From: a virus
Lineage: Duplodnaviria > Heunggongvirae > Uroviricota > Caudoviricetes
Length of the DNA: 64,000 bases
Strand: one strand, 5' to 3'
IMG/VR virus record: IMGVR_UViG_3300046533_001163
The position numbers and the translations under genes are program-made. The notes below the pieces were generated by a model. It was not told where the DNA came from. It worked only from the letters and a program-made list of their open reading frames with translations, and ran no database searches. Below, one piece after another: positions 21,503-42,785 of this stretch (position 1 is its first letter; each line of letters starts with the position of its first letter).

Positions 21503-21563
21503 ATATCTCTCCTAATTGTTTTAGATAATATGTTATCGGTAGAATAAAGAAAGGAGTTTAACC

Positions 21564-22028
21564 CTAAACTCTATCGCCCATTAAATCATCACTCAAGAAA
21601 TCAATCTTGGCGCGCATTTCATCAAGGAGCTTTTTAACTTCGGCTGCACTTTCCTTAGTTAAATTAGAATTTAAGGCAAATATTCCATTAGTAGAGATGT
21701 GATGTAATCTTTCAAGTACCTCAACAGAAACCTTAAGATTATGCAACGCATCTAACTTTGGACCAAAAGAAAAATCGGGAGTCGCCTTATTATCGCCGTC
21801 ATTTCCAAGCGTATATGTATCAACTGGATTATCGGCCATTCCTTTAGGCTTAAAAGAAAGCCTATGAACCTTCTCTTCTGGACTATACTGATCTTTGTCA
21901 TAGTAATCAACAGACTGATTGCCGAAAGCATCATTGGCTCTCTGTGTGCCATTCATTAGCTCTGCCTCCTGCTCTTCTTTAGACAGTGCCGCAGAATAAG
22001 CCTCAATCAATTCTCTCATAGATTCCAT
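21564..22028 (-). CDS. Hypothetical late protein
   Basis: 154 aa; TAAATA then GGAGG SD upstream. Confidence 0.6.
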   Translation of the reverse strand: MESMRELIEAYSAALSKEEQEAELMNGTQRANDAFGNQSVDYYDKDQYSPEEKVHRLSFKPKGMADNPVDTYTLGNDGDNKATPDFSFGPKLDALHNLKVSVEVLERLHHISTNGIFALNSNLTKESAAEVKKLLDEMRAKIDFLSDDLMGDRV

Positions 22029-22083
22029 ATAGATTTTCCTCCATATTATTTATGCCGCCCACAACAAAAACCGATAAACTAAC

Positions 22084-24534
22084 ATGGAAGATTGTAAGCG
22101 ACTAGTACTTCTGTGCCAAGAAGCACTAAAAACAAAAGGCATAGACGACACAATACACAATAACCGCCTCAGGTGGGAACTCAAGGAATTACAGGTCAAA
22201 AATGACTGCGGATATTTCCTGAACATCCATGATAAAGGCGTTAAAAACCAACCTAACCATAAAAATGTATTAGTTCCCTATTTGCTTGATATCTGTAATG
22301 AATTTGATATTACCAAGCTTCCAGAATTCCTAATGGGAGAAATGCCAGATATTGACGTTGACTACCTCCCAGAAATACAACAATATCTCAAAAATGATTA
22401 TGTTCCCAAAGCGTTCGGAGCAGAATACGTTTGCAATATAGGAAGCCACAATACGCTTGGCGTAAAATCTGCGCTTATCGACACAGTAAGAATTTATAGC
22501 AAAGATAGAGACGAAATTCTTAAGATTACAACTAAACTCCAAGACAAGAATGACGAAGGCAAGCCTATTTCCTTTGAAGAAGCGATTAACTCTAATTCCG
22601 ACTTAAAGAAGTATTTGGCCGAAAATCCAGAAATTAAAGAAGCAGCGGGAAAGCTGGTCGGTAAAACTAGAAGCTTTGGGCAACATGCGGCTGGTGTTAT
22701 CATATCCAGCGTACCTTTAAAAACCCTAGTGCCACTTATTTCCGGCAAAGATGGGATGCAATGTAGCGCATGGGGCGAAGGACAGCATAGCCTAGATTTA
22801 AGTACAGTAGGATTAATTAAATTTGACTTTCTAGGAAGCGAATCCTTAAACAAAGTCATGCAATGCCTTAAGCTTATAAAAGAAAGACATGGTATTGAAA
22901 AAGTATGTGCGGCACCAGGTGGAGACAACTGGTCAGACATTTCTTATCTTAACGATCCAAAATGCCTAGAAATGGCTAGTAAAGGCGATCTCAAAACTAT
23001 TTTCCAGTTTGATTCCGACGTTGCGCGTAAAATGTGCAAAGATGGTGGCGTTGATAGATTTGAAGATTTGGTAGCCTATACGTCATTAAACCGCCCAGGA
23101 TGCTTGGAAATGGGTACAGATGTGGAATTCATCAAGCGCAAAAAGGGCGCTTCATATGAGGTCCACCCGCTTCTAGAGCCTATCCTAAGAGATACTTACG
23201 CGCTAATGTTATATCAGGAGCAACTCTTCCGTATTCTTAACGTGGTGGGCAAAATTCCAGAACATCAATGCATGGAGGTTCAAAAAGCAGTATCTAAGAA
23301 AAAAGTAGATAAGTTCGCAAAATATAAAGAAATGTTCGTAGAAAATGGCCAAAAAGTATTAAACCAATCAAAAGAAGAACTAGAAAAACTTTGGGCATTA
23401 ATTGAAGCGTTCGCCAAGTACTCCTTCAACCTCGCGCACGCCTGTAGCTATACCTATGTTTCTTCCAGAATGTTATGGTTAAAATGCCACTACCCACTTG
23501 AATGGTATGCGGCCTGTATGTCGTCTTTAAAAACAGCCGATTCTAAGCTACAAGAGTATCGTTACGATGGTGTTAAGCATGATATAGTTTTTAACCGTCT
23601 TGACATTAACAAATCCAAGAGTAATTTTGCTATCGCAGAAGACAACTCAATCTACTATGCTTTCTCTAAGATTAAGGGAATCGGTGATGATATTGCGGAT
23701 AGAATTACATCATTGCAACCCTATGCTGATTTAAAGGATTTTCTACATAAGTTCGGAGTTCTTTCTAATACACTAAAGCCGCTTATAGCACTAAGAATAT
23801 TCGGCGATGACACAGTTTCTCTATGGAAGGAATATGAAAGATTTAAAGATGGCATTGACCAGAAAATAGAAGATTTAAACACTAAGCACGCTGAAACAAT
23901 AAACAAGCACGCTTCGGAATTAATGTCTCTGCTTCCAGAACAATTGATGGATATCAATTCAATAAGTGAAATAGACAAATTAGAAAACATTATAGATGCT
24001 AAAATCTATAAGAAGTTATTAAAAATTAAAGAAAAAAACGGCAAAACGATTGAGACATTTAATAAGAAACTAGCCAAACTTGAGAATTATGAAGTTAAAA
24101 TTGAGCCTGAATACGAAAAGCTACTCCTAGACAAAGATGCAGCGGAAATCGCATTTTACGGATTTCCTTGGGACAGCCCATTATCCAAATACGTATCGGC
24201 AGAAGAACATCACTTTGACTGGATGGATGCTAACGGATTAGAAGTAGCGCCCATTAATGTAAGAATTACAAACATACAAGAAAAACAGGGAAAAGTTAAG
24301 TTTTATCAATTAACGGTTCAGGATATTTTAGGTGCGGAAAAGAAAGCAAACATATGGAACTCTGACTATAATATCTGGAAGGAATTGTTAGTAGTTGGTG
24401 CGCTAATAAGAATACAGTTAAAGGCTCCAAATGGCGGTTTTCCAACTTATACGATGACATCGGAACGATTTAAAAAATATGTACGTGGAGTTAACGATTT
24501 TAGAATAGTGAATTTAGCAGGAGAAGTAAAATGA
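22084..24534 (+). CDS. dnaE: DNA polymerase III alpha, C-terminal polypeptide (palm catalytic Asps, thumb, fingers, HhH, OB)
   Basis: MPDIDVDY, GQHAAGVII, LIKFDFLG, IFQFDS, SLNRPG, LYQEQL, YSFNLAHACSY, IKGIG; no PHP domain. Confidence 0.93.
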   Translation: MEDCKRLVLLCQEALKTKGIDDTIHNNRLRWELKELQVKNDCGYFLNIHDKGVKNQPNHKNVLVPYLLDICNEFDITKLPEFLMGEMPDIDVDYLPEIQQYLKNDYVPKAFGAEYVCNIGSHNTLGVKSALIDTVRIYSKDRDEILKITTKLQDKNDEGKPISFEEAINSNSDLKKYLAENPEIKEAAGKLVGKTRSFGQHAAGVIISSVPLKTLVPLISGKDGMQCSAWGEGQHSLDLSTVGLIKFDFLGSESLNKVMQCLKLIKERHGIEKVCAAPGGDNWSDISYLNDPKCLEMASKGDLKTIFQFDSDVARKMCKDGGVDRFEDLVAYTSLNRPGCLEMGTDVEFIKRKKGASYEVHPLLEPILRDTYALMLYQEQLFRILNVVGKIPEHQCMEVQKAVSKKKVDKFAKYKEMFVENGQKVLNQSKEELEKLWALIEAFAKYSFNLAHACSYTYVSSRMLWLKCHYPLEWYAACMSSLKTADSKLQEYRYDGVKHDIVFNRLDINKSKSNFAIAEDNSIYYAFSKIKGIGDDIADRITSLQPYADLKDFLHKFGVLSNTLKPLIALRIFGDDTVSLWKEYERFKDGIDQKIEDLNTKHAETINKHASELMSLLPEQLMDINSISEIDKLENIIDAKIYKKLLKIKEKNGKTIETFNKKLAKLENYEVKIEPEYEKLLLDKDAAEIAFYGFPWDSPLSKYVSAEEHHFDWMDANGLEVAPINVRITNIQEKQGKVKFYQLTVQDILGAEKKANIWNSDYNIWKELLVVGALIRIQLKAPNGGFPTYTMTSERFKKYVRGVNDFRIVNLAGEVK

Positions 24535-24893
24535 ATGTAATGTTATTTGTGTTAGGAACAATTGGAGCTTCGTTTATTCTAGTAGACAGCACTTTATTTG
24601 CTCCAATTAGAAGCAAGCTAGAAAAATATGAATACCTATATTCTATGGTTACTTGCTATCAATGCAACTCTTTCTGGCTCGGAATGCTATTTGGATTCTT
24701 TTTAATTTCCAGTAATTTGTTTAGCGTATTTGCTTGTGGTTGCGCTGCAAGTTTTCTTAGCATCTTTGCGGCAGCTTTTATCAATGTATTTGAATCGTTT
24801 ACTAGCAGAATGCAATCGCTTGGATCTCCCTTCCCGCAAAACGTTCCATGCGTTAACTGCGGCAAGAAACAAACAGAAGAAGCGTCTAAATAA
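24531..24893 (+). CDS. DUF1360-like membrane protein
   Basis: TM segments with CYQCNSFW (CxxCxxxW). Confidence 0.5.
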   Translation: MNVMLFVLGTIGASFILVDSTLFAPIRSKLEKYEYLYSMVTCYQCNSFWLGMLFGFFLISSNLFSVFACGCAASFLSIFAAAFINVFESFTSRMQSLGSPFPQNVPCVNCGKKQTEEASK

Positions 24894-24896
24894 CAT

Positions 24897-25577
24897 ATGA
24901 CGTGCAGAAAATACGTACGCGGATCATACCCCACTAAAGGGAAGTGTTCGCCTTGTGGCGTTTCATTGTGTAATTCTAAATTGCTACAATGCTGCGGTAA
25001 AATCTGTCCGCCTCCAGCGTGCCCGCAAATAGAAAATCAATATGGCATCGGCTGCTGCGCAATCATTGTAGATGGCGCAAGAACTATGAATTACTCTATA
25101 GAATCATCGTGTCCATGCCTAGATGGACTTACCGGCACATTTCAAGCTCTGGGGAATGGGGGTGAGGTAACATCTTGGGGAGAGGATGGCCATCACCTCG
25201 CTAGCCCTCAGTGCGACTGTCGGGAAGGCGGATGCCTAGGACTTCCAGATACATTCAATAAATCTACATTCAGCATGACGATCAGGTGCGACAGTGGTGG
25301 ATTTTCGCTACTGGCGCAAACTTTCGGCGGGAACAACCGAATGTGCGAAGGCGGCTCCTGGGTATGCCAAATGTCTGCAAATGCATCATGGGTGTGCTGC
25401 GATACATCCATGCCGTTACCACTAGAGCCAATAGGCATTGACGGACAAGCATGCGATAGTTTTTCTTACACCTTTGAGGGATTTATGATGAAGCCTGATT
25501 CTTTTTTTAATAGAAATACATGTGGCTGTCCATGTGCTCAAGGATCTTCTATATCCGTTACAGTTACAAATATATAA
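24897..25577 (+). CDS. Cys-rich late (probable virion) protein
   Basis: 24 Cys in 226 aa; TAAATA-acat-ATG. Confidence 0.7.
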   Translation: MTCRKYVRGSYPTKGKCSPCGVSLCNSKLLQCCGKICPPPACPQIENQYGIGCCAIIVDGARTMNYSIESSCPCLDGLTGTFQALGNGGEVTSWGEDGHHLASPQCDCREGGCLGLPDTFNKSTFSMTIRCDSGGFSLLAQTFGGNNRMCEGGSWVCQMSANASWVCCDTSMPLPLEPIGIDGQACDSFSYTFEGFMMKPDSFFNRNTCGCPCAQGSSISVTVTNI

Positions 25578-25580
25578 AAT

Positions 25581-26105
25581 ATGACAAGATGTAACACGCC
25601 AGGCAATCAAAAGTCCTGTTATGTAATAATAGGATTTACAAGTAACATCAAACTAGAGGCCGGAAGCCCAAATACATTTGACCTCCATTGCGTAAATCAA
25701 TTCTACTCAATCGGCGATCAAACAATAACTGAAAATGATATCATAAAAAAATATTACTGTAGTGATGGTAGTGACGGACATCTACCCTGCAATGTATCAT
25801 CGGAATGGGCGAATTGTAGCGTACAAGGTGTAACAGTATATCTCAATATCGGAGGACCATACTTAACGCCGCCGGTTGATGTGCATGATGGAGACAATAT
25901 AACAGTGATAGTCACCTTTCCCGGAGATGCACCAATAAACCCCCCCCTGTCCTTAGGAAGATTTCCTGACGGCATTGAGTGCGTACAGTCTATGCCTATG
26001 TTCGTCTTTAGCTACTATAAGCCTAGCCAAAACAAGATAGTTATAAACAGACAGGCATTAATTAGACAAATTAAAGCCGACCAAAAACGTAGAAATATCC
26101 GATAG
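25581..26105 (+). CDS. Cys-containing beta-rich late protein
   Basis: 174 aa; TATATA-aaat-ATG. Confidence 0.65.
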   Translation: MTRCNTPGNQKSCYVIIGFTSNIKLEAGSPNTFDLHCVNQFYSIGDQTITENDIIKKYYCSDGSDGHLPCNVSSEWANCSVQGVTVYLNIGGPYLTPPVDVHDGDNITVIVTFPGDAPINPPLSLGRFPDGIECVQSMPMFVFSYYKPSQNKIVINRQALIRQIKADQKRRNIR

Positions 26106-26168
26106 TCTTAAAATATACCTTTTCCACAATATATAATACGTACAGTAATTTAATAGGATAATCTAAAA

Positions 26169-27041
26169 ATGAGTCTAAAATCATTCGAAGAGTTTGTAAA
26201 AAATAAAGGTGGAGTTCCTTACGTGTTTTCGGAAAAGATTCCACCAAAGTCAATTTCTGCTGATTCAGAAGGCGATGAAGAAGGCATGGGATTGCTTGGA
26301 AGTCCTCAGATGATGGACAAAGAACAACCCCCACTAACGCGGGTTGAGAAAAAGGACATGGCCGATCCAGAGTATACGAAGAATGGCGAAAAACTAAAGA
26401 CTCAAAAAGAAGGCGTTGAACTAGTTGAGCATCGTGGCGAAAGCGATGATTTATCAATGTCAAGTATTGATGGCGGAAAATTTTCGCCATCAATTAGCGA
26501 AGTTGCTTCATATACGGCTAAGTTAATTAAGAAGCACCCTCATACAGCAGAGCACTTTGTTAGAAACCTAAAGAAGCACGGCAGTTTTGAGGGATTTATC
26601 GCTGAGGCCGTTGAGCACCCAGAAACATTCGCGTGTCTAGCAAATCACATCGGGCATGACGAACATGGTCCCCGCCATTCAAAAAAGATGGTCAAGGCCC
26701 TAATGGCGCATCACACTGCAAAACATGCTATTAAAGAAAGCGTTGATGGTCCTCGTGGTGGCGATTTCGGTGGCGGAATGCCTTCGGCTCCTCCAGCACC
26801 AATGGGAGTTGCGCCAATGCCAGTTAATTCAGATCCTACCGGGCTTTCACCAACGACCGGAATGAGTGGGATGGGTGGAAGCGGGAACCTGAGTACAAGC
26901 CAAGCGCCGCCGGCCGTTCAGATGCCTGCTCCATCCGAGTCAGCACACAAGGGCGAAGGGTACCACAACCTGGTATCAGAAATGAGCAAGGAGCCGGAAA
27001 TGCACGATGCGATGCGTGAATGTTGCGGCATGGGATACTAA
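26169..27041 (+). CDS. Probable internal head/core protein
   Basis: MSLKSFEEFV N-terminus, low-complexity P/G/M tail, several [ILV]-x-E sites. Confidence 0.5.
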   Translation: MSLKSFEEFVKNKGGVPYVFSEKIPPKSISADSEGDEEGMGLLGSPQMMDKEQPPLTRVEKKDMADPEYTKNGEKLKTQKEGVELVEHRGESDDLSMSSIDGGKFSPSISEVASYTAKLIKKHPHTAEHFVRNLKKHGSFEGFIAEAVEHPETFACLANHIGHDEHGPRHSKKMVKALMAHHTAKHAIKESVDGPRGGDFGGGMPSAPPAPMGVAPMPVNSDPTGLSPTTGMSGMGGSGNLSTSQAPPAVQMPAPSESAHKGEGYHNLVSEMSKEPEMHDAMRECCGMGY

Positions 27042-27055
27042 CTTAGTCATAAGTT

Positions 27056-27084
27056 AAAAAAAGCCGCTTTAAGCGGCTTTTTTT
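27056..27084. terminator. Bidirectional intrinsic terminator between convergent genes
   Basis: AAAAAAAGCCGCT-TTA-AGCGGCTTTTTTT. Confidence 0.85.
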
Positions 27085-27090
27085 ATTCGA

Positions 27091-27633
27091 TCAATCCCCA
27101 TTACCCTTTTTGTAAATTTTCTTGATCTGGGATAAATCTTCCTTAGACGGCTTGCTACCACGATACTTCTGATATAATGGCTGCGCCTTGCACTTATGCT
27201 TCCAAAACTTCTCAGTAGCAATCTGTATTTCACATATCATGCCACCAATTACAATATCTACATGCACAGTTCCATAATAGCCAAACTCATACTCATTAGG
27301 ACTATCATTATGGGCGACCTTCTTAACAATGAAATGCTTCTTGATATTATCAACAATTTTAGATATTTGATTTTTGGTATCTACAAGAATCGCGGCCCTT
27401 AATATGTCAAATACCTTAGATGGAGACTTATTCCTTTTCTTGGTTTTATTATTAAACGACTTCTCGCTTTTAATATCTATGACAATCTTATGTCCATCAG
27501 CAGAATGCTTGAGTAGCGTAGCAAATTTTGGCTTCAATTCTAAAGCCATTTTCTTTGCTTTATCATAAGTTTGAAAATCCTGCTTTTTAGCAATCGGCTG
27601 AGGATTTTTCTCTATCCATTCTTTAAAGTCCAT
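27091..27633 (-). CDS. RelA/SpoT-family small alarmone synthetase-like nucleotidyltransferase
   Basis: IKSEKSFNNKTKKR (Syn1), FDILRAAILV (Syn2), GYYGTVH (Syn3), EIQIAT (Syn4); 180 aa with no hydrolase domain. Confidence 0.75.
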   Translation of the reverse strand: MDFKEWIEKNPQPIAKKQDFQTYDKAKKMALELKPKFATLLKHSADGHKIVIDIKSEKSFNNKTKKRNKSPSKVFDILRAAILVDTKNQISKIVDNIKKHFIVKKVAHNDSPNEYEFGYYGTVHVDIVIGGMICEIQIATEKFWKHKCKAQPLYQKYRGSKPSKEDLSQIKKIYKKGNGD

Positions 27634-27647
27634 ACATTATTTATGAA

Positions 27648-27842
27648 CTAGGATTTCTTCTTTTTCTTTTTACGATGTTCGGCCCTATCACCAGCACTAC
27701 CAATCGGCCAACCTTCCATTGAAACTCCGGCAACACCTGCCGAGCCAGCAATATTAAAACCGAGTTTCTGCAACCTGCTTTTTGGCACGGTCCCTACAAT
27801 AATTGCCCCGCCTTCTTTTAGCCATTCTTGAAACGTTTTCAT
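27648..27842 (-). CDS. Small basic late protein with capsid-targeting-like N-terminus
   Basis: MKTFQEWLKE..., C-terminal RKKKKKKS; TATATA-atat-ATG. Confidence 0.65.
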   Translation of the reverse strand: MKTFQEWLKEGGAIIVGTVPKSRLQKLGFNIAGSAGVAGVSMEGWPIGSAGDRAEHRKKKKKKS

Positions 27843-27858
27843 ATATTATATAACAAAA

Positions 27859-27883
27859 GCGGCCTAGGAAATTCCTAGGCCGC
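27859..27883 (-). terminator. Terminator hairpin insulating the late genes at 27091-27842
   Basis: GCGGCCTAGGAA-A-TTCCTAGGCCGC perfect inverted repeat followed by TTTTGTT on the minus strand. Confidence 0.75.
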
Positions 27884-27945
27884 TCACTATCCAAAAAGGA
27901 GACTTGGCTCCTGACAGAAATTATATACCAACTACGCTTTAATAA

Positions 27946-28440
27946 TTAAAAGCCGCCAACTATTTCATGCACTTCATCAACACTAATTCCTAACACTTTA
28001 GAAGCATTTTTAATCTTCTTATGAAGAAGGGTATAATTAGCCTTCATTCGCTTTACGTGCTCTTTCAACTGAGGGTGATCGGTATTATATAAAGCGTCCT
28101 CTCCCGCGTCCCAAACATCAGCATATGCATCGGCAACATCAATTTCACCAGAGCTAAAATAAGCACAAGCCAAAGATACATTATACACAATCGGGTGTTG
28201 AACTGTGACCTGTATATCGGTACTAGCCGTAACCGAAATAAGAGACTTTATTTCTCGTATAAGAGGATGTCCCGCTAGTTTGTTTTGTTCATCATACTGA
28301 ATATGGTAAATTTTCTGATTAATCTTGCTCTGCAACGCCTGCAAAGCTTTTAAATCATTAACGCTATCTATATCAACGCCTTTTTTAGCGCCCTTGATTT
28401 TAGTTTTAATAGCTTTAACTTTAGTTTTCATATTTTTCAT
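27946..28440 (-). CDS. Hypothetical protein, paralog family B
   Basis: Similar to 28971-29432 at both ends. Confidence 0.65.
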   Translation of the reverse strand: MKNMKTKVKAIKTKIKGAKKGVDIDSVNDLKALQALQSKINQKIYHIQYDEQNKLAGHPLIREIKSLISVTASTDIQVTVQHPIVYNVSLACAYFSSGEIDVADAYADVWDAGEDALYNTDHPQLKEHVKRMKANYTLLHKKIKNASKVLGISVDEVHEIVGGF

Positions 28441-28992
28441 TTAATCGCCTATTAATTGTTCAAGATCATGCATTCTAAGATTTGATACAAAGCCACATCT
28501 ATCATTATAATGGTATCTTGTATTCACGCAACCAGATGCAAACCGATTAATAAACTTACGCTTTTTACCAAACGGCCAAACTCTATATTTTAACAAATAA
28601 CTTAATACCGACCATCGCATAGAACTACCGCGCCAAAACTCGCCAGGCTCAATGCAAAAGGTGTGCTGGTTGGTAGTACAGTAAATCACAGCAGGGTTTT
28701 TTAACTTTAACTTGGCTTCAATATCGGACACGACCTTAATGCGTCCTGGATTATTTGTCGTAATAAAAAATGCTTTAAACTTTCCACTTCGGAAGTAATG
28801 TAAGTAACCCTGAAAAGAATCCCGACATGACATAGGATTCCATCCATTGGCCGAATAAACACTAGGAAGATAAAAACTAAAAGATGAGTCTACCGGAAAC
28901 GGAACTCCTTCTGGAAGTTCCGGCAAACTTTCTATGTAATTACGAGAAAACATGGCATCTCTCATTGTCCTCATAAATTGACTATGTCCCAA
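28441..28992 (-). CDS. Hypothetical protein, paralog family A
   Basis: CRDSFQ, FWRGSSMRWSV, SGCVNTRYHYN shared with 30054-30593. Confidence 0.65.
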   Translation of the reverse strand: MGHSQFMRTMRDAMFSRNYIESLPELPEGVPFPVDSSFSFYLPSVYSANGWNPMSCRDSFQGYLHYFRSGKFKAFFITTNNPGRIKVVSDIEAKLKLKNPAVIYCTTNQHTFCIEPGEFWRGSSMRWSVLSYLLKYRVWPFGKKRKFINRFASGCVNTRYHYNDRCGFVSNLRMHDLEQLIGD

Positions 28993-29432
28993 ACATCGCC
29001 CTCTGATATGCCGAATTCTTTCGCAGTCTTTAATACTTTTTCTCTAATCTGTTTTTGAATTATTCTAATATCCTTAATCCTTTGTTTTATTACAGGATGA
29101 TTGCCACCCTGTATTTTATTCTCTTCTACAGCAGGATAATAATCCCCTTTAAGTTCCACGTAGTCTACTGCAATTTCGCTGCCTTGATCGTATGAATCTA
29201 CGATTAGAGAAACTCTAAATTCCAGTGCTTTTTTAGAGGGCACAGTAACATCAAACTCACACCTTCCATTAATCTGCTGTGCCAATAAACGAATTTCTTT
29301 TACCAATGAAAAGCTTGAAAGCTTATTCTTCTTAGCACGATCCTGACTATCAATCTTAGATATTTTATTATCAATACTTTCTCTAAGCTTAGTCAAAACC
29401 TTACGATCATTAATTTTTTCAACATCAATCAT
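28971..29432 (-). CDS. Hypothetical protein, paralog family B
   Basis: INDRKVL..L...I..KI, HP.IK...., GIS...VWDIV. Confidence 0.65.
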   Translation of the reverse strand: MIDVEKINDRKVLTKLRESIDNKISKIDSQDRAKKNKLSSFSLVKEIRLLAQQINGRCEFDVTVPSKKALEFRVSLIVDSYDQGSEIAVDYVELKGDYYPAVEENKIQGGNHPVIKQRIKDIRIIQKQIREKVLKTAKEFGISEGDVWDIVNL

Positions 29433-30049
29433 ATCGCATCTCCCATAATTTTCTTGAGTTCTTTACGATTCACAAAGCATTTATCAACTTGCTTCGGAGT
29501 TAAATTATAAAAATGATCACACCAGCCAGTAAATTTAGGCGCATCATAATAACTATAACCATTATTATGCCTAAAAGTCTGATAGCGTACATAATGATTG
29601 CCGTTTAAAAACTTATTAACGGCAACCCTCGTATTGCGCGATGAAAAATACTCTGACCTACGTATCGTAGAAACAACGTTGGCCCTATAGCTTCTACCGG
29701 CTCTTATTAAAGCTGTCAGTAAAGAAAACCTAACTCTCTTCATCCAAAAACCGGTCAGCTTAATACAAACAATATTCTTTCCGTCAGTTCTATATCCATT
29801 ACACCGAAATCTTTTGGGTACCTTAGACTTAATCTGAAAATCTTTCAAAAATTTTATAATATTTCCTAAGTGAGCGCCACTCTTACACTGATAAAACAAT
29901 CTTCTCGGATACGGATTATAGCGAAACGTATCATCCACAGATTCACGACAATACTCCCAATACTGGTAATTGTCGTTTACTAAATAAAATGAATCTTTAT
30001 ATTCTCCATAAATATCATCGTTAGATGGAGCTTTAATCAATCTTTTCAT
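29429..30049 (-). CDS. Hypothetical protein, paralog family A (divergent)
   Basis: YCRES, FWMKRVRFSLLTALIRAG. Confidence 0.65.
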   Translation of the reverse strand: MKRLIKAPSNDDIYGEYKDSFYLVNDNYQYWEYCRESVDDTFRYNPYPRRLFYQCKSGAHLGNIIKFLKDFQIKSKVPKRFRCNGYRTDGKNIVCIKLTGFWMKRVRFSLLTALIRAGRSYRANVVSTIRRSEYFSSRNTRVAVNKFLNGNHYVRYQTFRHNNGYSYYDAPKFTGWCDHFYNLTPKQVDKCFVNRKELKKIMGDAI

Positions 30050-30053
30050 TAAG

Positions 30054-30593
30054 TCACCTACAGATTAACTTGGAAACATCAGGAAGTAATTTTAAATTTT
30101 CAAAAATACCAAAATCAGGATTGTAATGAATCGCCGTGTTCACACAGCCTGATTTAAACTTTGCTAAAAATTCTTTTTTCAAATCAGTATCAAAGTATGG
30201 GCCAACATACCCCCGAGCCTTAAATACAGAACTAAAAACAGAAAGCCTCATCGGACTAGCAAGCCAAAATTTGCTCATTTCAATATAAGTGATACGTTTC
30301 TCATCAGTAGGAAAAAAATTAGTGCGATCTAAAGTATCAATATTTAATTCTTGTTCAATATCTTGAACCGGCTGAATATGCATTTTAGATGCACCCTCTG
30401 GTGCTCTCAAATAAAGAATGTGTCTTTTATCTTCGCTAATTTTCAAAATTCTGCTCTGAAATACGTCCCTGCAAAGATACCACGCTTTATCTGTAAAGCT
30501 GAGAAAGTCAGCTATTAAAAATGGATACGACGAGAAATCATAATTAGCATGTGTTGGGGGTATCTTTACACTAGATTTAAATGGCCAAAACAT
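30054..30593 (-). CDS. Hypothetical protein, paralog family A
   Basis: CRDVFQ, FWLASPMRLSV, SGCVNTAIHYN; start taken at MFWPF (30593). Confidence 0.65.
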   Translation of the reverse strand: MFWPFKSSVKIPPTHANYDFSSYPFLIADFLSFTDKAWYLCRDVFQSRILKISEDKRHILYLRAPEGASKMHIQPVQDIEQELNIDTLDRTNFFPTDEKRITYIEMSKFWLASPMRLSVFSSVFKARGYVGPYFDTDLKKEFLAKFKSGCVNTAIHYNPDFGIFENLKLLPDVSKLICR

Positions 30594-30594
30594 A

Positions 30595-30828
30595 TTAGAC
30601 CTCTTTATAACCTTTTGCCGTTTTCTCTTTAACCATCTTAGACACATGCTTAATGGCATCGTCGTTACTTGAGAATTCCTTAATACTAAAACTGCCAGCA
30701 GCGCCTATCTTGCCATACTTAAAAAATACTACGTCTTCTTCACAAAAAACGCTCCAGAACTTATTAGACCGCCCCTTCGTAAATTCAAACCTACGAAAGA
30801 CTTCTTTAACGCCATCTAGTTTTTTCAT
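30595..30828 (-). CDS. WGR-domain protein
   Basis: SNKFWSV...YGKIGAAG.....F....A.....K...EK..KGY. Confidence 0.85.
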   Translation of the reverse strand: MKKLDGVKEVFRRFEFTKGRSNKFWSVFCEEDVVFFKYGKIGAAGSFSIKEFSSNDDAIKHVSKMVKEKTAKGYKEV

Positions 30829-30854
30829 AATTGTACTTTTAGAAAGGAAGGCCA

Positions 30855-30883
30855 AATATACCACATTTTGTCAAGCCGGTCAA
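30855..30883 (-). promoter_or_regulatory. sigma70-type promoter
   Basis: TTGACC-17 nt-TATATT with TG extension, upstream of the WGR gene and paralog array. Confidence 0.55.
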
Positions 30884-30917
30884 TCTCTCCTAAGCAGAAT
30901 TTTTGTGGTAAAGCCGC

Positions 30918-31397
30918 CTATTGTGATACAAAAACAGCACACCAATAATACATGCTATTATCGCCGCAGGCAACACCTATTCCAATATGAGAATAATCTC
31001 CTAGCATATTTTTTCTATGACCAGAAGAATTTTCCCACATAGTAATTACTGCTTCGGGGTCATACCAAGATTCGTCGGCGATATTTTCACCTATCGCACT
31101 AAAAGACTTTCCGACTTTCTCTACTCTGTCCCATGGCTCTTCGCCATTATCATTTTTGTGAGAAAGCTTGCCTGCACGCGCCATCCAGTCAGCATGTCGT
31201 TGAGCAACAGAACAAATAATAGCATCCTTAGTTAAATCAGCTTTCCCATTATTAAAACGAAAAGCATTAACGTAATGGAGCAGCTTATCTGTTTTTTCAT
31301 CATAGGCTGACACCGCAGTATTAAACGGCGTCTGATGATGGCAACTTACCGCGCAACATAAGAAAAGAATAATAACGATTTTTTGGAACATTTTCAA
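30918..31397 (-). CDS. CAP/SCP-domain lipoprotein
   Basis: Signal peptide with AVS-C lipobox; VNAFR, AQRHADWMA....LSH, GENIA, W.NSSGHRKNML, IGIGVA. Confidence 0.88.
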   Translation of the reverse strand: MKMFQKIVIILFLCCAVSCHHQTPFNTAVSAYDEKTDKLLHYVNAFRFNNGKADLTKDAIICSVAQRHADWMARAGKLSHKNDNGEEPWDRVEKVGKSFSAIGENIADESWYDPEAVITMWENSSGHRKNMLGDYSHIGIGVACGDNSMYYWCAVFVSQ

Positions 31398-31400
31398 TCC

Positions 31401-31607
31401 CTATAAATGGCTAATGTCTGCATCATGCTGCCTTGGCAGATTCTTAGCATCATTTTCATCCATGATGATAAGCTCGGGAACCCCATCTTGCCAAACAGTA
31501 ATGCCAATTACGTTGTCTAAGTTAGAGCACTTGACGCAGGTCTTGGTACTAGGAAGAGCTTCAAGGCGCTCTTTAGGAATCTTCTTACCGCAGGTTTCGC
31601 ACAACAT
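31401..31607 (-). CDS. TraR/DksA C4-type zinc-finger protein
   Basis: CETCGKKIPKERLEALPSTKTCVKC. Confidence 0.85.
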   Translation of the reverse strand: MLCETCGKKIPKERLEALPSTKTCVKCSNLDNVIGITVWQDGVPELIIMDENDAKNLPRQHDADISHL

Positions 31608-31630
31608 AATCTGTATCTAGAATAGTAGTC

Positions 31631-31825
31631 CTAGTTTTTAAAATCACTACGACTAAAAATTATAATAGGAAACGCTATAAAAAAATACAAAGATGCTGCG
31701 GCACAAACCCATATTGCCCTACCGTCTAATACATTCAACCAGCACATAGCTTGCAAAAGCCAAGCCCCAATGTAGTCAAAAGAAAACCAAGTTTTCTTAA
31801 AGTACTTAAAGTACTGGCGAAACAT
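31631..31825 (-). CDS. Small two-TM membrane protein
   Basis: 64 aa, hydrophobic. Confidence 0.5.
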   Translation of the reverse strand: MFRQYFKYFKKTWFSFDYIGAWLLQAMCWLNVLDGRAIWVCAAASLYFFIAFPIIIFSRSDFKN

Positions 31826-31827
31826 GA

Positions 31828-32079
31828 TTATCGTCCGAATCGGAACCCGAAGCCAAAATATGGCTGGTAGTATGGCTGATTATAGTAATAAGGGTTATTA
31901 TAATAATACGGCTGGTTGTAATAGGGGCGATTGTAGTATGGGTTCCCATAATACTGGCGACCATATGGGCGATTATAATTGTTATTCGGCCCACCTACAC
32001 CAACTCCAAGTCCCCATCCCGCATCACTTACGGCGGGAGCACACAAAAATAAAGCAACAGCAATCAATAGTTTTTTCAT
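31828..32079 (-). CDS. Secreted Tyr/Asn/Pro-repeat peptide
   Basis: Signal peptide MKKLLIAVALFLCAPAVSDA, then repeated YY(N/G)xPY. Confidence 0.65.
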   Translation of the reverse strand: MKKLLIAVALFLCAPAVSDAGWGLGVGVGGPNNNYNRPYGRQYYGNPYYNRPYYNQPYYYNNPYYYNQPYYQPYFGFGFRFGR

Positions 32080-32100
32080 GATTTTTTTCTCCAATTATAT

Positions 32101-32385
32101 TTATATTTCCGAACGAACATCTTCAACAAGCATCACGTACTCTTGTGCTTTTTTCAGTACTTTCAGACAAAGACTTTTGACAATGCTATCATAATTATTC
32201 CGCAAAGTGCCAACCTCAAACCTGTTATAAACTAAATAACCGCCATTATTAGTATCAATAATACCTATATTCCATAGGCCCATATCGTATATTCCAACGG
32301 ATAATCCCCGGCGTGAAAACTGGTAGCCATTCAGGCTCTTCCTTGCGAAACCTTTTTCCATCAAATAAGCCATATCATCTTCCAT
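32101..32385 (-). CDS. Hypothetical protein
   Basis: 94 aa, packed. Confidence 0.5.
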   Translation of the reverse strand: MEDDMAYLMEKGFARKSLNGYQFSRRGLSVGIYDMGLWNIGIIDTNNGGYLVYNRFEVGTLRNNYDSIVKSLCLKVLKKAQEYVMLVEDVRSEI

Positions 32386-32388
32386 ACT

Positions 32389-32748
32389 TCACCATCCCAT
32401 AGTTCTTTTAGCGCCATCACGATATTCTTTGGTCAAATGATTTAACTGAAATAAAGTACGATTTGCGTTGAATTGCTTAAGCACTTTATTATCGTGAGAC
32501 GCCATCATCTTGTCACTAATCGCATCAACGCCTTCAAGGCCAGAGTCTATATTTCGCATGTCTACCATAATTCTATACTCAGAAGAATTACGCCACTCTT
32601 GAATTGACTTAAACTTTTTTCCGTCAACAATGAATCCAGAAGTGCTTCTTTTCTCAAAAAGGCCAGGGCGAGGTGGATGAGGAATCTTATCCGCAGCCAT
32701 AACCAAAGTAGAACTCCACACCAACACCGCAAACGTAAAAATACGCAT
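32389..32748 (-). CDS. Hypothetical secreted protein
   Basis: N-terminal signal peptide, AGGAG SD. Confidence 0.55.
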   Translation of the reverse strand: MRIFTFAVLVWSSTLVMAADKIPHPPRPGLFEKRSTSGFIVDGKKFKSIQEWRNSSEYRIMVDMRNIDSGLEGVDAISDKMMASHDNKVLKQFNANRTLFQLNHLTKEYRDGAKRTMGW

Positions 32749-32763
32749 GATCTTTCTCCTGTA

Positions 32764-32865
32764 TTAGAAAAAATAGTTCCAGTGCTTTTTAACCCATCGG
32801 TAAGCAAATGGAAAGCCAATGATGCAAGCCAAAATAACAAACAATTGAAGTATTAAATCAAACAT
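32764..32865 (-). CDS. 33-aa single-TM peptide (not in ORF track)
   Basis: MFDLILQLFVILACIIGFPFAYRWVKKHWNYFF; AGGAG SD, fills the gap between genes. Confidence 0.6.
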   Translation of the reverse strand: MFDLILQLFVILACIIGFPFAYRWVKKHWNYFF

Positions 32866-33184
32866 TTTTTAACTCCTCCCGCCAATCATTCAAGCCACAA
32901 ATAATTTCATAATATTCCAAAATTGATTTTCTTAAACTATTTTCTAGTTGTTCCTCAAGCTGGCCCAGGGGAACATAGAAGGCAAATTTTCCGCCAACAG
33001 CAATAGTCCAATTACCATAACCAGTATTGGTAATTTTTATTTTACTGTTTTCATATGTTTCAGCAGGTGTTTGGAATGAAAATAAGCTAACAGAATGGCT
33101 ATTGACCGAAAACGGAGAGTTAAGATTAGCCTTAACCGCAATTTTTTCAAATCCAATGCTTAATAAATAATCATAGTCACTCAT
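32858..33184 (-). CDS. Hypothetical protein
   Basis: 108 aa, 4-nt overlap with the upstream gene. Confidence 0.55.
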   Translation of the reverse strand: MSDYDYLLSIGFEKIAVKANLNSPFSVNSHSVSLFSFQTPAETYENSKIKITNTGYGNWTIAVGGKFAFYVPLGQLEEQLENSLRKSILEYYEIICGLNDWREELKNV

Positions 33185-33468
33185 TGCTTGTACTCATCTA
33201 AATCGCCATTTTTAACAATACACTTATCCTCATACGGAGCCACTAGTCTACGATTAAACTCTAAGCCAGCAGCATTGAATACTTCCTGTGCTCGGCTAAG
33301 ATTAGCGTATCGCCAGCCGGCATCTGGCTTCATTGAAGCCGCAACAATTCTAGTAATCGTATAATTACAATTACCCTCTAAGCTATCTGGATAAGACTTC
33401 AATAAAGTAATTAGCTCATCAATTTTAGGATTTAATACTGATCGAATATCAATAGGAACGTACGGCAT
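33181..33468 (-). CDS. Conserved phage protein (G.xNY.IT...EF.RR..APYED..NGD family)
   Basis: Motif recognisable from small phage proteins; function unknown. Confidence 0.6.
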   Translation of the reverse strand: MPYVPIDIRSVLNPKIDELITLLKSYPDSLEGNCNYTITRIVAASMKPDAGWRYANLSRAQEVFNAAGLEFNRRLVAPYEDKCIVKNGDLDEYKQ

Positions 33469-33494
33469 AATAACTACCTTTAATAAAAAACTAA

Positions 33495-33716
33495 TTAATC
33501 AACTGTAAAGCTTGCAATAACATCATTATCAAAACGAACTTCTACATCCACATATTCACCACCAGCATGACTTACTTGCTGAAAAGTAAGTCTTTGTTTT
33601 AAAACCTGCTTTACCAATTCGGTAAAGCACTCCATTTGTTTCACAGACTGATTGCTACCCGGCAACCAAGTGCAGTTATTGCCAAACAAACCCGCCAACG
33701 CTTGTTCTGTTTTCAT
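33495..33716 (-). CDS. Hypothetical protein
   Basis: 73 aa, AGGA SD. Confidence 0.5.
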   Translation of the reverse strand: MKTEQALAGLFGNNCTWLPGSNQSVKQMECFTELVKQVLKQRLTFQQVSHAGGEYVDVEVRFDNDVIASFTVD

Positions 33717-33779
33717 GACTTGTTCCTAGATTATGGATACTTTTACCAATTTTACTAGAAAAAACCCAACAATGCAATA

Positions 33780-35159
33780 TCAATTTTTGGGTTTTGAGAA
33801 TTTTGTTAAAAACTCATTAACTGTTTGATCAAAAACATTTTTAGTTTTTTTAGTGAAGGCGCATGGCAATGAAACCTGTTTAATCGCTTCCACAATCTTC
33901 TGGTCACTTTTAGCCAAAACATCCTTCAACTTATCAAAGAAGACACTAGAGTTTGCTTTAGTGATTTTCTTCATTCCACTAAAATTCTCCTGCCATATCT
34001 TTTGAGTAATTTGCTTATTCTCCTCATACTTTTCTTTATACTCGGCATTTATCTGATTAACTTTATCAATAGAATCTTGCGCTAAAGATTTAGTCCAGTT
34101 CCATGCCTGTAATGCAGGAATGGTACAAATAAACTTCATCATCTGATCTTCTAGCTCATACATTTCGTCCGGGCCATCGCCAGCAAAAAAATCTTCTATC
34201 TGCTTAGAGTTCATGCCTTTGAGAAATTCTTCTTCTAACGTTTCGCTGATTAATTCAAAAACATCAAAATCATATGTGATATGGCGCACTTCGCGGCCTG
34301 GTTCATGAACATCAAAAGACTCGCCAGTATAACAACTATAAAGCCACTCGCCCAAAAACTCAAAACTCAAAAGACGATCTGATTTTCCAGTATTAACAAA
34401 CTCTAGTTCGCCAGAACAATCCCACTCTGGATCTTTATCATAATTAACATTAAAAGTTGGTCCTTCTAATACCCACTCGGAATACATCTGACAAATAACA
34501 AGAGCAATTTTCTTTCTTAGAGAACATCTAACTTTTAGAAAATCAAACTTATCTCTATTTTTTGCGTACCAAGTAGATTCATTAAATATAACTTCTTTAT
34601 ACTTAACTTCCTCCGAATGCATCAATTCATGTTCTGAAAATTGTTCCTGCAATATATCAGACGTTCGCTCTGGATAATCGTACTCCAACAAAGCCTGGTT
34701 TAAAAAACTATCGGCATAAAATTTCTCCCCACAAGTGTCGCAAGTAGAGAATATATTAAATAAATTATGATCATCTAATTCTGCCGGAAGCCTATGGCCA
34801 TGATGAATTTCTTTAGAAAGATACTCTACAAACTCTTCTTTACGCTCTTCTAAAGTTTCAGTTTTATATGGAGACATATAACTATCAATAACATTAATCT
34901 CGTCTGCCACTTCGTCTAACCATAAGTTAGCATTCCCAGTTAGTTGCTTAATCTGCTTTTCGGTAGATGCGTAAAAGAAATTACCACATTGAAAACAAAT
35001 GCACACAGGACCATTCTTAGTTGCGTCATGTTTTAATAAATGATTCTGACAAGACGGACAAGTTAAGAAGTGACTTTTGTCAGAACTCTTCTGACGACTT
35101 ATAGTTCCACGCTTAACTAATTTATCAAATAAATGTTTATTCATACAGTTAGTCTCCAC
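33780..35159 (-). CDS. Hypothetical acidic protein with Zn-ribbon motifs
   Basis: CPSC..CFQC near the N-terminus, CDTC; directly downstream of dnaE-N. Confidence 0.7.
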   Translation of the reverse strand: METNCMNKHLFDKLVKRGTISRQKSSDKSHFLTCPSCQNHLLKHDATKNGPVCICFQCGNFFYASTEKQIKQLTGNANLWLDEVADEINVIDSYMSPYKTETLEERKEEFVEYLSKEIHHGHRLPAELDDHNLFNIFSTCDTCGEKFYADSFLNQALLEYDYPERTSDILQEQFSEHELMHSEEVKYKEVIFNESTWYAKNRDKFDFLKVRCSLRKKIALVICQMYSEWVLEGPTFNVNYDKDPEWDCSGELEFVNTGKSDRLLSFEFLGEWLYSCYTGESFDVHEPGREVRHITYDFDVFELISETLEEEFLKGMNSKQIEDFFAGDGPDEMYELEDQMMKFICTIPALQAWNWTKSLAQDSIDKVNQINAEYKEKYEENKQITQKIWQENFSGMKKITKANSSVFFDKLKDVLAKSDQKIVEAIKQVSLPCAFTKKTKNVFDQTVNEFLTKFSKPKN

Positions 35160-35161
35160 TA

Positions 35162-36496
35162 TTATTTATCGGCTACTGGCTCCAATAAATTAATATCAAA
35201 CTTATAGTCAATAGCCCGGCCTCGTGCCTCGCTCAAAAACCTACTAAATAGCAATCCGTGGTGCACACTATCAATATCTGTAATGCCCATTGTATAGAGC
35301 ACTAGGCTTGACGCTGCACTACCTCTGCCTGGATTAATAGCATTGGTTTCACTAGTTCCCAAAACATCTCTACAATACCTGCGAGCTTCATCAATCACTT
35401 GTTGTTGTATAAGAAAATACGATGAAAATCCTTTACGGGTAATCAAATCATACTCTTCCGCAATTCTCTTCTTGTACTCAGTTGTGTTAGGAAGATTTCG
35501 TTTTTTAAAACCAACTTTAATTGCTTCTTTTAACTTTTCGTCAGCATCAGGTATTTCCGGCAGTTTAATAGATCGGTCAATCCTAACGCCTTCTGCCATC
35601 TGACAAATTCTTACAGTATTACGCTTTGCTTCTTGATAAATGTCTAGTGGAATAATATCACTAAAATCGTTCTCCCACTTTTCATTTAACTGTTGTTCAT
35701 TCTTGAAATAAATTTGCTTATCTTGTACCTCAAACATATCGTTACCAGCCGCAACTAACTTATCTAGTTCAGCTCTAGTTCTCTTACTTTGAACCAACAG
35801 TAAATTTGTTTGCGCTTCGTGATCTTGCTGGTCCACATAATGCACATCATTAGTTAATACCATATGAATGTTGTGCTTTAAATGCATCTTTACCAAAAAC
35901 TGGTTGAACGCTCGTTGTGGCGCATAATCAATCATCATCATTTCAAGATAATAATTATCACCAAACACAGAACGATAATCTAGAATCATTGCTTCGGCTG
36001 CATCTTCACCATGATTAACAAATGCCTGTCCTACTTCCCCCATAATACAGCAAGAGCCAACAATTAATCCTTCAGAAAACTTCTTAAGAACGTCCCAGTT
36101 AACTCTAGGCTTGTAATAAAAGCCATGTATCTCGGCAAAACTAGTAATCTGTACTAGGTTGCTGTATCCTACATTACTAGCCGCAATTAAAAGAAGATGA
36201 TAAGATTTCTTAATCTTAACTCGTTCTTCTGGGGGTAGGTCAGCAAAAGTATCTGGGTTATGCGCTCGCTGTATGTATATTTCACAAGCAATTACCGGCT
36301 TTGTCCCAAATTTATCACATGCTCTTAGCTGTGATGGAACAGCAGCCATTGATCCATGATCGCTCAAGCAAAGATACTGATGATTATTTTTCTTTGCTTT
36401 CTCAGCGTATTGATGGCAGAAACCAACAGCATCTAGAATACTCGCTTCAGCACTATGAAGATGAAGATGCTCAAATCCAGTAATTTCCTGTTTCAT
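35162..36496 (-). CDS. dnaE: DNA polymerase III alpha, N-terminal polypeptide (PHP domain and start of palm)
   Basis: HLHLHS, LSDHG, IACEIY, YHLLL, YYKPRV, TNDVHY, YFLI, PGRGSAASSLVLY..GITDID, LLFSRFL; stops just before the PDxDxD motif. Confidence 0.92.
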   Translation of the reverse strand: MKQEITGFEHLHLHSAEASILDAVGFCHQYAEKAKKNNHQYLCLSDHGSMAAVPSQLRACDKFGTKPVIACEIYIQRAHNPDTFADLPPEERVKIKKSYHLLLIAASNVGYSNLVQITSFAEIHGFYYKPRVNWDVLKKFSEGLIVGSCCIMGEVGQAFVNHGEDAAEAMILDYRSVFGDNYYLEMMMIDYAPQRAFNQFLVKMHLKHNIHMVLTNDVHYVDQQDHEAQTNLLLVQSKRTRAELDKLVAAGNDMFEVQDKQIYFKNEQQLNEKWENDFSDIIPLDIYQEAKRNTVRICQMAEGVRIDRSIKLPEIPDADEKLKEAIKVGFKKRNLPNTTEYKKRIAEEYDLITRKGFSSYFLIQQQVIDEARRYCRDVLGTSETNAINPGRGSAASSLVLYTMGITDIDSVHHGLLFSRFLSEARGRAIDYKFDINLLEPVADK

Positions 36497-36702
36497 TACT
36501 TCTTAATCATTTCTTTCTTGCGAGTTTCCCAAGAAAGAAGCAGCGCCTTAGCTTCGGCCTCTAGCTTAAGCTTATCTTCTTTATAAGTATCTAAAACCTT
36601 CTTTACAGTTTCATTTTTAGTTTTTAAAAGATTATGGATTTCCGAAATCTTAGTACTAAACTGCACGAAATCATCTGTTAAAAGTGATTCTAATTCATTC
36701 AT
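36496..36702 (-). CDS. Small coiled-coil protein
   Basis: 68 aa, 1-nt overlap with dnaE-N. Confidence 0.6.
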   Translation of the reverse strand: MNELESLLTDDFVQFSTKISEIHNLLKTKNETVKKVLDTYKEDKLKLEAEAKALLLSWETRKKEMIKK

Positions 36703-36707
36703 GATAT

Positions 36708-36740
36708 TTTCTCCGATTAGGTATTAATATATCGGAGAAA
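36708..36740 (-). promoter_or_regulatory. Hairpin covering the RBS of 36496-36702
   Basis: TTTCTCCGAT-13 nt-ATCGGAGAAA; the 3' arm on the minus strand contains the GGAG SD. Confidence 0.45.
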
Positions 36741-36757
36741 TGCAGAAGAAACCTTAA

Positions 36758-37357
36758 TTAAATTATGCTATCGGCCAAACCTATATCAACAGTTTCTTTG
36801 GCATTAAGAATTGTGTCGGTTTCCAGCATCTTTTGAAGCTCTTTACGGTCAAAATCTGGATGCTTTTCTATAATTCTCTTGAAGTATATTTCTTCAAGCT
36901 CTAAGTCTGTTTTATCCATCTCTTTAGTCCAATTTTTAGCAATCTTAGAATAATCAGAAATTTCAAATATCCCATAATGCATCATAAAACGACTATGGGC
37001 AGAAATCCTCCGCTCACCAGTGGCACCTTGTAATATCACCCCAGTAGCAGAAAAGGCTGGACCAAAAACATCAATATTAACTTTTGGCTTACATGTGGCG
37101 ATAAAATCGTATATGGCACCGCAATAATACCAATCCCCTCCAAGGCCACTTAATACAATTCGTATAGGGCCTGGAGGGGCGAGGTTATCAAGGAAATGCA
37201 GCCCTTTTATAGCGTTAGCTGCAAAATCAGAGTTTATTTCTAGCTCATTTCCGTCAGGATCAGACGGATTACCCATATAAAGCGTTCTAGTACTGGTATG
37301 AATTCCATGGTCATACCAGAGAAGCGCTTCATTGAATACGAAACTTTTAACAGCCAT
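36758..37357 (-). CDS. clpP: ClpP-family protease subunit
   Basis: RTLYM, GG....G.AIYD, AFSATGVIL (Ser), RFMMHY (His), ETDTILNAKE...GLAD (Asp). Confidence 0.85.
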   Translation of the reverse strand: MAVKSFVFNEALLWYDHGIHTSTRTLYMGNPSDPDGNELEINSDFAANAIKGLHFLDNLAPPGPIRIVLSGLGGDWYYCGAIYDFIATCKPKVNIDVFGPAFSATGVILQGATGERRISAHSRFMMHYGIFEISDYSKIAKNWTKEMDKTDLELEEIYFKRIIEKHPDFDRKELQKMLETDTILNAKETVDIGLADSII

Positions 37358-37409
37358 ATAACGTCCTTATCAGACGCTATATTATAGTCATTTGGCTGTT
37401 AAAAATTGC

Positions 37410-37577: not shown

Positions 37578-37603
37578 AATAATTACCTTTCTTGTTTTTA
37601 AAC

Positions 37604-42751: not shown

Positions 42752-42785
42752 TCTGACTTGTGTCCTTGGTAGAGAATTTTATAAA

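Follow-up and report, generated by a model that had tools for sequence, protein, structure and literature searches.

Polymerase III alpha subunits encoded in pieces have been described before. In group 2.2 jumbo phages, the passages of Iyer et al. (2021, Viruses 13:63, PMC7824862) devoted to the subject describe a split minimal polymerase III (Pol III) alpha, whose N-terminal nucleoside triphosphate (NTP)-binding protein and C-terminal Mg2+/DNA-binding protein come from distant genes and are proposed to reconstitute one enzyme. Cyanobacterial DnaE is also encoded by two distant genes, with a split intein (Caspi et al. 2003, as cited in PMC3919608), and fractured genes, or genes in pieces, have been described as arising through homing endonucleases (Dassa et al. 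2009, PMC2677866). Here we analysed a 64,000-nucleotide stretch of a Caudoviricetes virus (IMG/VR record IMGVR_UViG_3300046533_001163; the whole stretch is called the window below), in which a DnaE-type DNA polymerase is encoded by two genes on opposite strands, one for an N-half of 444 amino acids (aa) and one for a C-half of 816 aa. To our knowledge, every C-family replicase characterised so far has its nucleotide-binding loop on the same chain as its catalytic aspartates.

The two proteins jointly make up a complete DnaE, cut within the palm domain and lacking any recognisable intein, and the same break was found throughout a large clade of huge phages. We put at about 0.8 the probability that the products of the two genes are the two chains, both obligatory, of a single DnaE-type (C-family) replicative polymerase, and that they associate non-covalently into a composite active site with no splicing involved.

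A complete DnaE divided between two genes

The features of the two genes, numbered from the first letter of the window, are as follows.

35162..36496, minus strand: N-half gene (P0002), 444 aa, PHP and the N-terminal, nucleotide-binding part of the DnaE palm (open reading frame (ORF), translation, Pfam, PDB, 91-sequence alignment)
35936..36469, minus strand: PHP domain, residues 10-187 (PF02811, E 1.7e-40)
35318..35329, minus strand: GRGS nucleotide-binding motif of the palm, G390-S393 (invariant in 91 N-halves)
35165..35545, minus strand: N-half side of the overlap, residues 318-444, the canonical palm-segment copy plus tail (hhalign, alignment)
22084..24534, plus strand: C-half gene (P0001), 816 aa, leader, catalytic aspartate strands, thumb, fingers, helix-hairpin-helix (HhH), helical insert and oligonucleotide/oligosaccharide-binding (OB) fold (ORF, Pfam, AlphaFold2 (AF2) model)
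22084..22344, plus strand: leader, residues 1-87, a second, diverged copy of the helical segment of the palm (profile comparison, AF2)
22255..22266, plus strand: pseudo-GS motif N58-H-K-N61 of the leader (N58 and N61 invariant in 91 C-halves)
22345..22362, plus strand: PDIDVD, residues 88-93, with the first two catalytic aspartates, D89 and D91 (alignment)
22819..22836, plus strand: KFDFLG, residues 246-251, with the third catalytic aspartate, D248, and K246 (alignment)
22855..23352, plus strand: fingers domain, residues 258-423 (PF17657, E 7.7e-34)
23590..23790, plus strand: HhH DNA-binding module HHH_6, residues 503-569 (PF14579, E 1e-9)
24193..24531, plus strand: C-terminal OB fold, residues ~704-816 (AF2 strands within 721-810; OB-fold matches at Z 9-10.4)

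The ORF list places the two halves of the polymerase 10.6 kb apart on opposite strands, with the same coordinates that a first-pass annotation of the window had given them. Within the 260-position DNA_pol3_alpha profile of Pfam (PF07733), residues 321-435 of the N-half correspond to positions 2-108 and residues 86-251 of the C-half to positions 100-260. When aligned to solved structures, the N-half covers residues 7-465 of T. aquaticus Pol III alpha and the C-half residues 460-925. These alignments of both halves therefore place the cut after the RFL..R helix and before the PDxDxD strand, where the annotation had also seen it. Its further claim, that the GS motif and the catalytic aspartates lie on different chains, was borne out as well, given that GRGS (390-393), R419 and R425 belong to the N-half, while D89, D91 and D248, within PDIDVD and KFDFLG, belong to the C-half. 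The components of a DnaE-type C-family enzyme (PHP, palm with GS loop and three aspartates, fingers, HhH and OB fold) are all present over the two chains, and the catalytic core, which in that type lies on one polypeptide, is divided here between two opposite-strand ORFs.

All nine PHP metal ligands are present in the N-half (H12, H14, D22, H47, E72, H100, C150, D217, and H219), in agreement with the earlier description of an intact metal site. Across 91 N-halves with a mean identity of ~50%, the last seven of these ligands are invariant and H12 and H14 are conserved in at least 90% of the sequences, while R419, F420, and R425 are likewise invariant. As homing elements, inteins favour the catalytic sites under the strongest constraint. 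One relative homologous to the N-half (P0251) has a full-size intein inserted exactly between GRG and S of the GRGS motif, and another (P0256) has one exactly between TND and CHY of the PHP metal site. That these motifs are invariant or nearly so, and that inteins of relatives target two of them, is evidence that the N-half motifs still matter. Intein and LAGLIDADG domains were also observed in many other homologues of the N-half or the C-half, of 800-1340 aa.

In the C-half, P88, D89, D91, and D93 are invariant across 91 sequences, as are K246 and D248. PDIDVD pairs with MPDIDTD at residues 460-466 of T. aquaticus alpha, and KFDFLG pairs with LKMDFLG of the same protein. The AF2 model of the C-half has a predicted local distance difference test score (pLDDT) of 87.5, and its residues 34-809 align to residues 351-1099 of M. 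tuberculosis DnaE1 (7pu7_A) with Z 25.6 and a root-mean-square deviation (rmsd) of 5.3 A over 606 aligned residues (VIA-align). The C-terminal OB fold aligns to 3u4z_A with Z 10.4 and an rmsd of 3.0 A over 95 residues.

Pfam found no intein domain on either protein, which agrees with the first description of the split as intein-free. A permissive Pfam search (E-values up to 5) of the leader and of the final 50 residues in the N-half likewise found no intein family, and Rfam found no intron or other RNA family over positions 20000-38500. A scan for promoters and terminators around the C-half unit was uninformative, with fewer promoter-like sites than in shuffled sequences.

The split is not special to this genome: in the suggested survey of related phages, hundreds of clusters in relatives carry the same break. 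With the N-half as query in its own length class, more than 100 clusters were obtained whose members are 435-480 aa long and have PHP and a partial palm. The C-half search gave more than 100 clusters, 808-930 aa in length and lacking PHP; their contigs reach about 670 kb, and the genes often adjoin phage-typical S21 and peptide deformylase genes. The two-gene split is the standard state of a large huge-phage clade. For a view of gene order, close loci in IMG/VR were searched with an alignment-based scan, a single-protein query having returned no relatives. Of the 39 close loci, 27 have both genes on one strand, with the N-half 0.4-9.6 kb upstream; 11 have no N-half within a flank of at most 10 kb, and one (L021) is a single-chain gene. 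Since the pair is normally co-directional, the opposite-strand layout in the window is a local, derived rearrangement, possibly shared with the closest relative, L003.

The duplicated junction

The leader of the C-half was compared with the N-half through profiles. A profile of 50 leader sequences matched, at its residues 3-46, residues 318-362 of the N-half profile with a probability of 92.9% and E 3.8e-7 (hhalign), and it matched the N-half tail alignment with a probability of 91.4% and E 9e-7. This paralogy is seen between profiles only, and a BLASTP comparison of the window's leader with the end of its own N-half was not significant (E 0.77). The leader profile had no match among PDB sequences at E-values up to 10, and the leader had no Pfam match at E-values up to 5. 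With tblastn, both halves can be placed on single-chain phage DnaEs, where they overlap by ~100 residues, which is what two copies matching one canonical segment should give. The pair is also longer than a single-chain relative (444 + 816 = 1260 aa vs 1179 aa), with the ~81 extra residues explained by the duplicated junction. Judged by these profile matches, the leader is evidently a true paralogue of N-half residues 318-362.

The two copies differ in which motifs they have kept. In the leader, N58..N61 stands in place of GRGS, the LLFSRFL..R helix is absent, and the beta strand and GS loop are missing as well. What remains is modelled by AF2 as helices at residues 2-17, 23-39, 42-50, and 63-67, at block pLDDT 79-95. 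Matched by eye, N-x-x-N-L-L-V-P-Y-L-L-G-I of the leader resembles S-A-x-G-S-L-V-x-Y-x-L-G-I of the canonical copy. On the N-half side, the tail occupies the place where PDxDxD would follow. It reads RGRAIDYKFD in this window, while the consensus in relatives is basic, RGG[KR]xMK[LI]RF. We considered and rejected the idea that this tail fills in for the missing strand when the protein is free, as residues 427-444 are disordered (pLDDT below 50) when the N-half is modelled by itself.

Six leader residues (R28, E32, E35, F45, N58, and N61) are invariant among 50 leaders, and of 69 long representatives at the 50% cluster level, 53 have NxxN followed by two hydrophobic residues. In the leader, the commonest residue at a position has a mean frequency of 0.56, the same as in the C-terminal third, compared with 0.73-0.77 in the catalytic core. 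In the overlap copy of the N-half this frequency is 0.75, on par with the remainder of that protein. A profile of the leader by itself matched 236 clusters at 50% identity, 123 of them at E <=1e-10. The leader was at the extreme N-terminus in nearly all of the 150 matches listed, and among these no internal leader, as in a fusion retaining the duplication, was evident.

The first-pass annotation had taken the leader for a decayed copy of the end of the N-half. We found that the copy is well supported, but the six invariant residues speak against decay. Going by residue conservation, the catalytic motifs are kept in a strictly complementary fashion, with both copies of the junction under selection. 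The scenario of duplication followed by reciprocal loss that was proposed along with it fits the duplicated junction and the complementary loss of motifs, and the order of events that it implies is plausible.

Complex model, mechanism and alternatives

The heterodimer prediction that had been suggested as a check was run with the full N-half and residues 1-550 of the C-half, each with a 91-row alignment. Three runs gave ipSAE interface scores of 0.84, 0.85, and 0.84, compared with 0.35 for the best control; the ipSAE mark used is attained by 58 of 80 solved complexes and by 2 of 110 mismatched pairs. The three runs agreed on at least 90% of their contacts, and the partner pLDDT was 89. The most confident contacts set N-half residue 387, in the strand before GRGS, against the C-half strand D93-Y94. 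Further contacts are predicted between N-half helix 367-374 and C-half helix 98-107, between N-half strand 308-311 and the C-half strands at 208-209 and 243, and between N-half residues 381-396 and C-half residues 80-95. PHP residues contact the palm and thumb of the C-half, and the interface includes leader residues 31-70 and N-half tail residues 418-438. In the model, one palm sheet would be built from both chains.

Modelled separately, each half is incomplete in the palm. The aspartate strand region of the C-half (81-100) is poor, at block pLDDT 56-64, and the N-half has no palm strands (306-312 and 385-389 are not strands) in addition to its disordered tail. The leader of the C-half alone is nevertheless placed on canonical palm helix positions, with model residues 37-593 aligned to residues 330-911 of the 4jom chain and model residues 1-589 to residues 315-933 of the 5lew chain.

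Taken together, these observations suggest the following mechanism. The N-chain would contribute the PHP 3'-5' exonuclease and the palm part that binds the incoming nucleotide (beta strand, GRGS loop, and RFL..R helix), while the strands that bear the three catalytic aspartates would come from the C-chain, as would the thumb, fingers, HhH, and OB fold. We infer that the chains associate non-covalently after translation and that neither RNA nor protein splicing takes part. With strands from both chains forming a single palm beta-sheet, the active site would be composite, triphosphate binding coming from the N-chain and metal and DNA binding from the C-chain, and the PHP domain on the N-chain would proofread. 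Each chain would retain a copy of the ~100-residue junction, with the N-chain copy being the catalytic one. The leader, which has lost its catalytic motifs and yet is conserved, is most likely part of the interface or a folding aid. A more speculative idea, to which we give rather less than even odds, is that the duplicated junction evolved as an interlock that enabled the intein-free fission of an essential replicase. Each chain may then keep a catalytically dead copy of the element supplied by its partner, namely, on the C-chain, the leader NxxN for GRGS and, on the N-chain, the basic tail strand for PDxDxD. These dead copies may pack together, or on the partner, as a pseudo-active-site module that holds the heterodimer.

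Several points weigh against two obligatory chains with a composite site. The complex runs used our own alignments, so the calibration counts for ipSAE hold only roughly. Given that single-chain DnaE structures have been solved, the high score may also reflect a memory of the DnaE fold, in which case the model would show that the pieces fit as they do in DnaE, a likeness rather than binding. N58 aligns by eye with the serine of GRGS, and a modified, self-contained site in the C-half is therefore possible. The first-pass annotation had also raised an intact dnaE elsewhere, with the two genes as its decaying fragments. Among the window's ORFs of at least 400 aa, none besides the two halves matches a polymerase family; with the search covering the ORFs of the 64-kb window, the ~511-kb genome may have a further, intact dnaE or a different replicase in its remaining part.

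An alternative that we regard as unlikely is that the two proteins have separate functions, the C-half being a self-sufficient polymerase whose palm is completed by N58 and N61 of the leader, and the N-half a stand-alone PHP exonuclease whose palm remnant is catalytically irrelevant and kept as a docking piece. A proofreading subunit that binds alpha in trans is well established in E. coli epsilon, and both the invariance of N58 and N61 and the canonical placement of the leader on 4jom and 5lew speak for this alternative. It is harder to see, without nucleotide binding, why GRGS, R419, F420, and R425 should be invariant in 91 N-halves, or why the overlap copy of the N-half should be far better conserved than the leader (0.75 vs 0.56). 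Moreover, the leader has no beta strand, GS loop, or RFL..R helix with which to complete a palm, the aspartate strand is poorly modelled without the N-half, and the complex model sets the N-half GS strand beside D91-D93.

Covalent rejoining of the halves, by atypical split-intein trans-splicing, RNA trans-splicing or DNA rearrangement during infection, has a precedent of sorts in two relatives (L042 and L039), which have true split inteins and free-standing endonuclease genes inside the fingers domain. For the palm break we consider it very improbable. Neither protein has an intein domain and no intron family was found; the leader is homologous to DnaE itself and has no terminal HN followed by Cys, Ser or Thr; and the N-half tail is short and variable. 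The genes are 10.6 kb apart on opposite strands, and a joined product would duplicate ~100 residues of the palm. That the genes are decaying fragments of a dispensable dnaE, or an artefact of assembly, is hardly credible, with the unusual architecture being the only point in its favour. Both reading frames are intact, and homologues that are ~50% identical show no variation in the catalytic residues. Misassembly, raised earlier as a way in which the split could be spurious, is itself unlikely because identical genes were found on several contigs from differing samples and assemblers: the exact C-half is on 4 independent contigs and the exact N-half on 7, the longest of these contigs (511,254 bp) has both halves, and a separate 59-kb Logan contig has the same layout, including the opposite strands. 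The same break in hundreds of clusters likewise argues against both decay and artefact. A two-chain DnaE remains our preferred reading.

Gene neighbourhood, origin and known systems

Directly downstream of the N-half, P0003 (33780-35159, minus strand; 459 aa) carries CxxC...CxxC zinc-ribbon motifs. It starts 2 nt past the N-half stop codon and is therefore probably co-translated with the N-half, although it does not adjoin the N-half in relatives L004 and L005. P0003 had no match in Pfam or PHROGs and no usable one in the ESM Atlas, where template modelling (TM) scores of ~0.2 are meaningless. Between the halves lies a RelA_SpoT-like small alarmone synthetase homologue of 180 aa (27091-27633, minus strand; PF04607, E 2e-7), which was the sole match there, as Pfam and PHROGs returned nothing for the neighbours of the C-half or for most of the genes between the halves. 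In relatives, a gene whose product has an N-terminus like M..F.EYLN.KGK lies between the halves on the opposite strand (L019:9371-9877, L045:9314-9892, and L010:7651-8610, all minus strand, and ~20 more loci), and tblastn found no homologue of it in this window.

A PrkA, DUF444, and SpoVR trio, a bacterial kinase module associated with stress and sporulation, is found at 40673-45708 on the plus strand, in a region with a G+C content of 0.43-0.46 compared with 0.36-0.39 in its surroundings. DUF444 and SpoVR are directly upstream of the N-half in relative L004. The window also has a number of host-like genes, all on the minus strand: DnaJ (4568-5629), a thiamine-pyrophosphate enzyme (8087-9709), an indoleamine 2,3-dioxygenase homologue (11090-12256), ClpP (36758-37357), and a class-I glutamine amidotransferase of peptidase family C26 (37604-38428).

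In the window, neither half has a detectable endonuclease gene next to it. In relatives, a free-standing LAGLIDADG-type gene was observed directly upstream of the C-half on the opposite strand (L010:8826-9920, L042:8826-9920, and L030 at ~9110-9922, all minus strand), amounting to 3 of ~39 close loci. Two loci have a C-half that is broken again inside or after the fingers, with intein-splicing fragments on both pieces (L042:9980-14035 and L039:9968-13320). The endonuclease between these pieces is DUF7487/TnsA-like in L042 and LAGLIDADG in L039, a classic fractured-gene layout. Because relatives bear free-standing endonuclease genes at this gene, an endonuclease-driven origin of the palm break is possible.

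The nearest single-chain forms are ~1180 aa long (LR756511.1, and P0245 from a 590-kb contig) and 45-48% identical to the N-half, compared with 33-36% for bacterial DnaE. In the huge phage LR756511.1, the ~1180-aa protein is the only dnaE product, with 48% identity to the N-half and 40% to the C-half. Trees of the N-part and of the C-part, rooted on bacterial DnaE, both nest the single-chain huge-phage clade inside the split clade. A single split clade was not rejected in the approximately unbiased (AU) test (p 0.324), and the outgroup branch is very long. The tree topologies hint that the single-chain huge-phage DnaEs (LR756511.1, P0245, and others) may be re-fused halves, and the alternative, that they are ancestral, agrees with the AU result.

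If the two-chain reading is true, an extensive phage clade, whose genomes run to hundreds of kb, replicates with a DnaE active site made from two proteins, which would amount to a natural experiment in protein fission without inteins. Being two soluble pieces that share a conserved overlap, the pair would also offer a tractable system for studying the folding of a Pol-beta-like palm and the evolution of fragment complementation. Annotation pipelines label the pieces 'DNA polymerase III subunit alpha' and 'PHP domain-containing protein', and they could pass for truncated genes.

Single-chain DnaEs such as those of T. aquaticus (2HPI/3E0D), E. coli (2HNH/5FKU), and M. tuberculosis (7PU7/5LEW) share their domains, domain order and motifs with the pair described here, and the full PHP ligand set is common to T. 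aquaticus DnaE and this N-half. Compared with all of them, LR756511.1 included, the enzyme here comes as two chains from opposite-strand genes with a duplicated junction. In cyanobacteria, the DnaE break is further along the gene, around residue 770 in the fingers region. The cyanobacterial halves bear intein fragments and are ligated into one chain, whereas here there is no intein, the break is in the palm and two chains result. Phage Aeh1 nrdA/mobE is a gene in pieces through a homing endonuclease. Like such fractured genes, the locus encodes an essential phage enzyme of replication or nucleotide metabolism in pieces, but unlike them it has no intein fragments at the palm break.

The closest resemblance is to the jumbo-phage split of PMC7824862, which also breaks between NTP-binding and Mg2+/DNA-binding parts, in distant genes and with no intein. 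That version, as its description there has it, is minimal (nucleotidyltransferase and template-binding parts), is without PHP or other Pol III domains, and stands beside a family B polymerase. The searchable literature, outside which most subscription journals fall, yielded only this minimal version and no full-length, intein-free split phage DnaE. The system in the window has everything from PHP and palm through thumb, fingers and HhH to the OB fold, and so amounts to a full-length DnaE; its likeness to the minimal split is drawn from the published description. Its junction is duplicated, and the passages of PMC7824862 on the minimal split make no mention of a duplication. The idea of a split Pol III alpha has therefore already been published by Iyer et al. 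(2021), and what appears to be new here is its full-length form with a duplicated junction.

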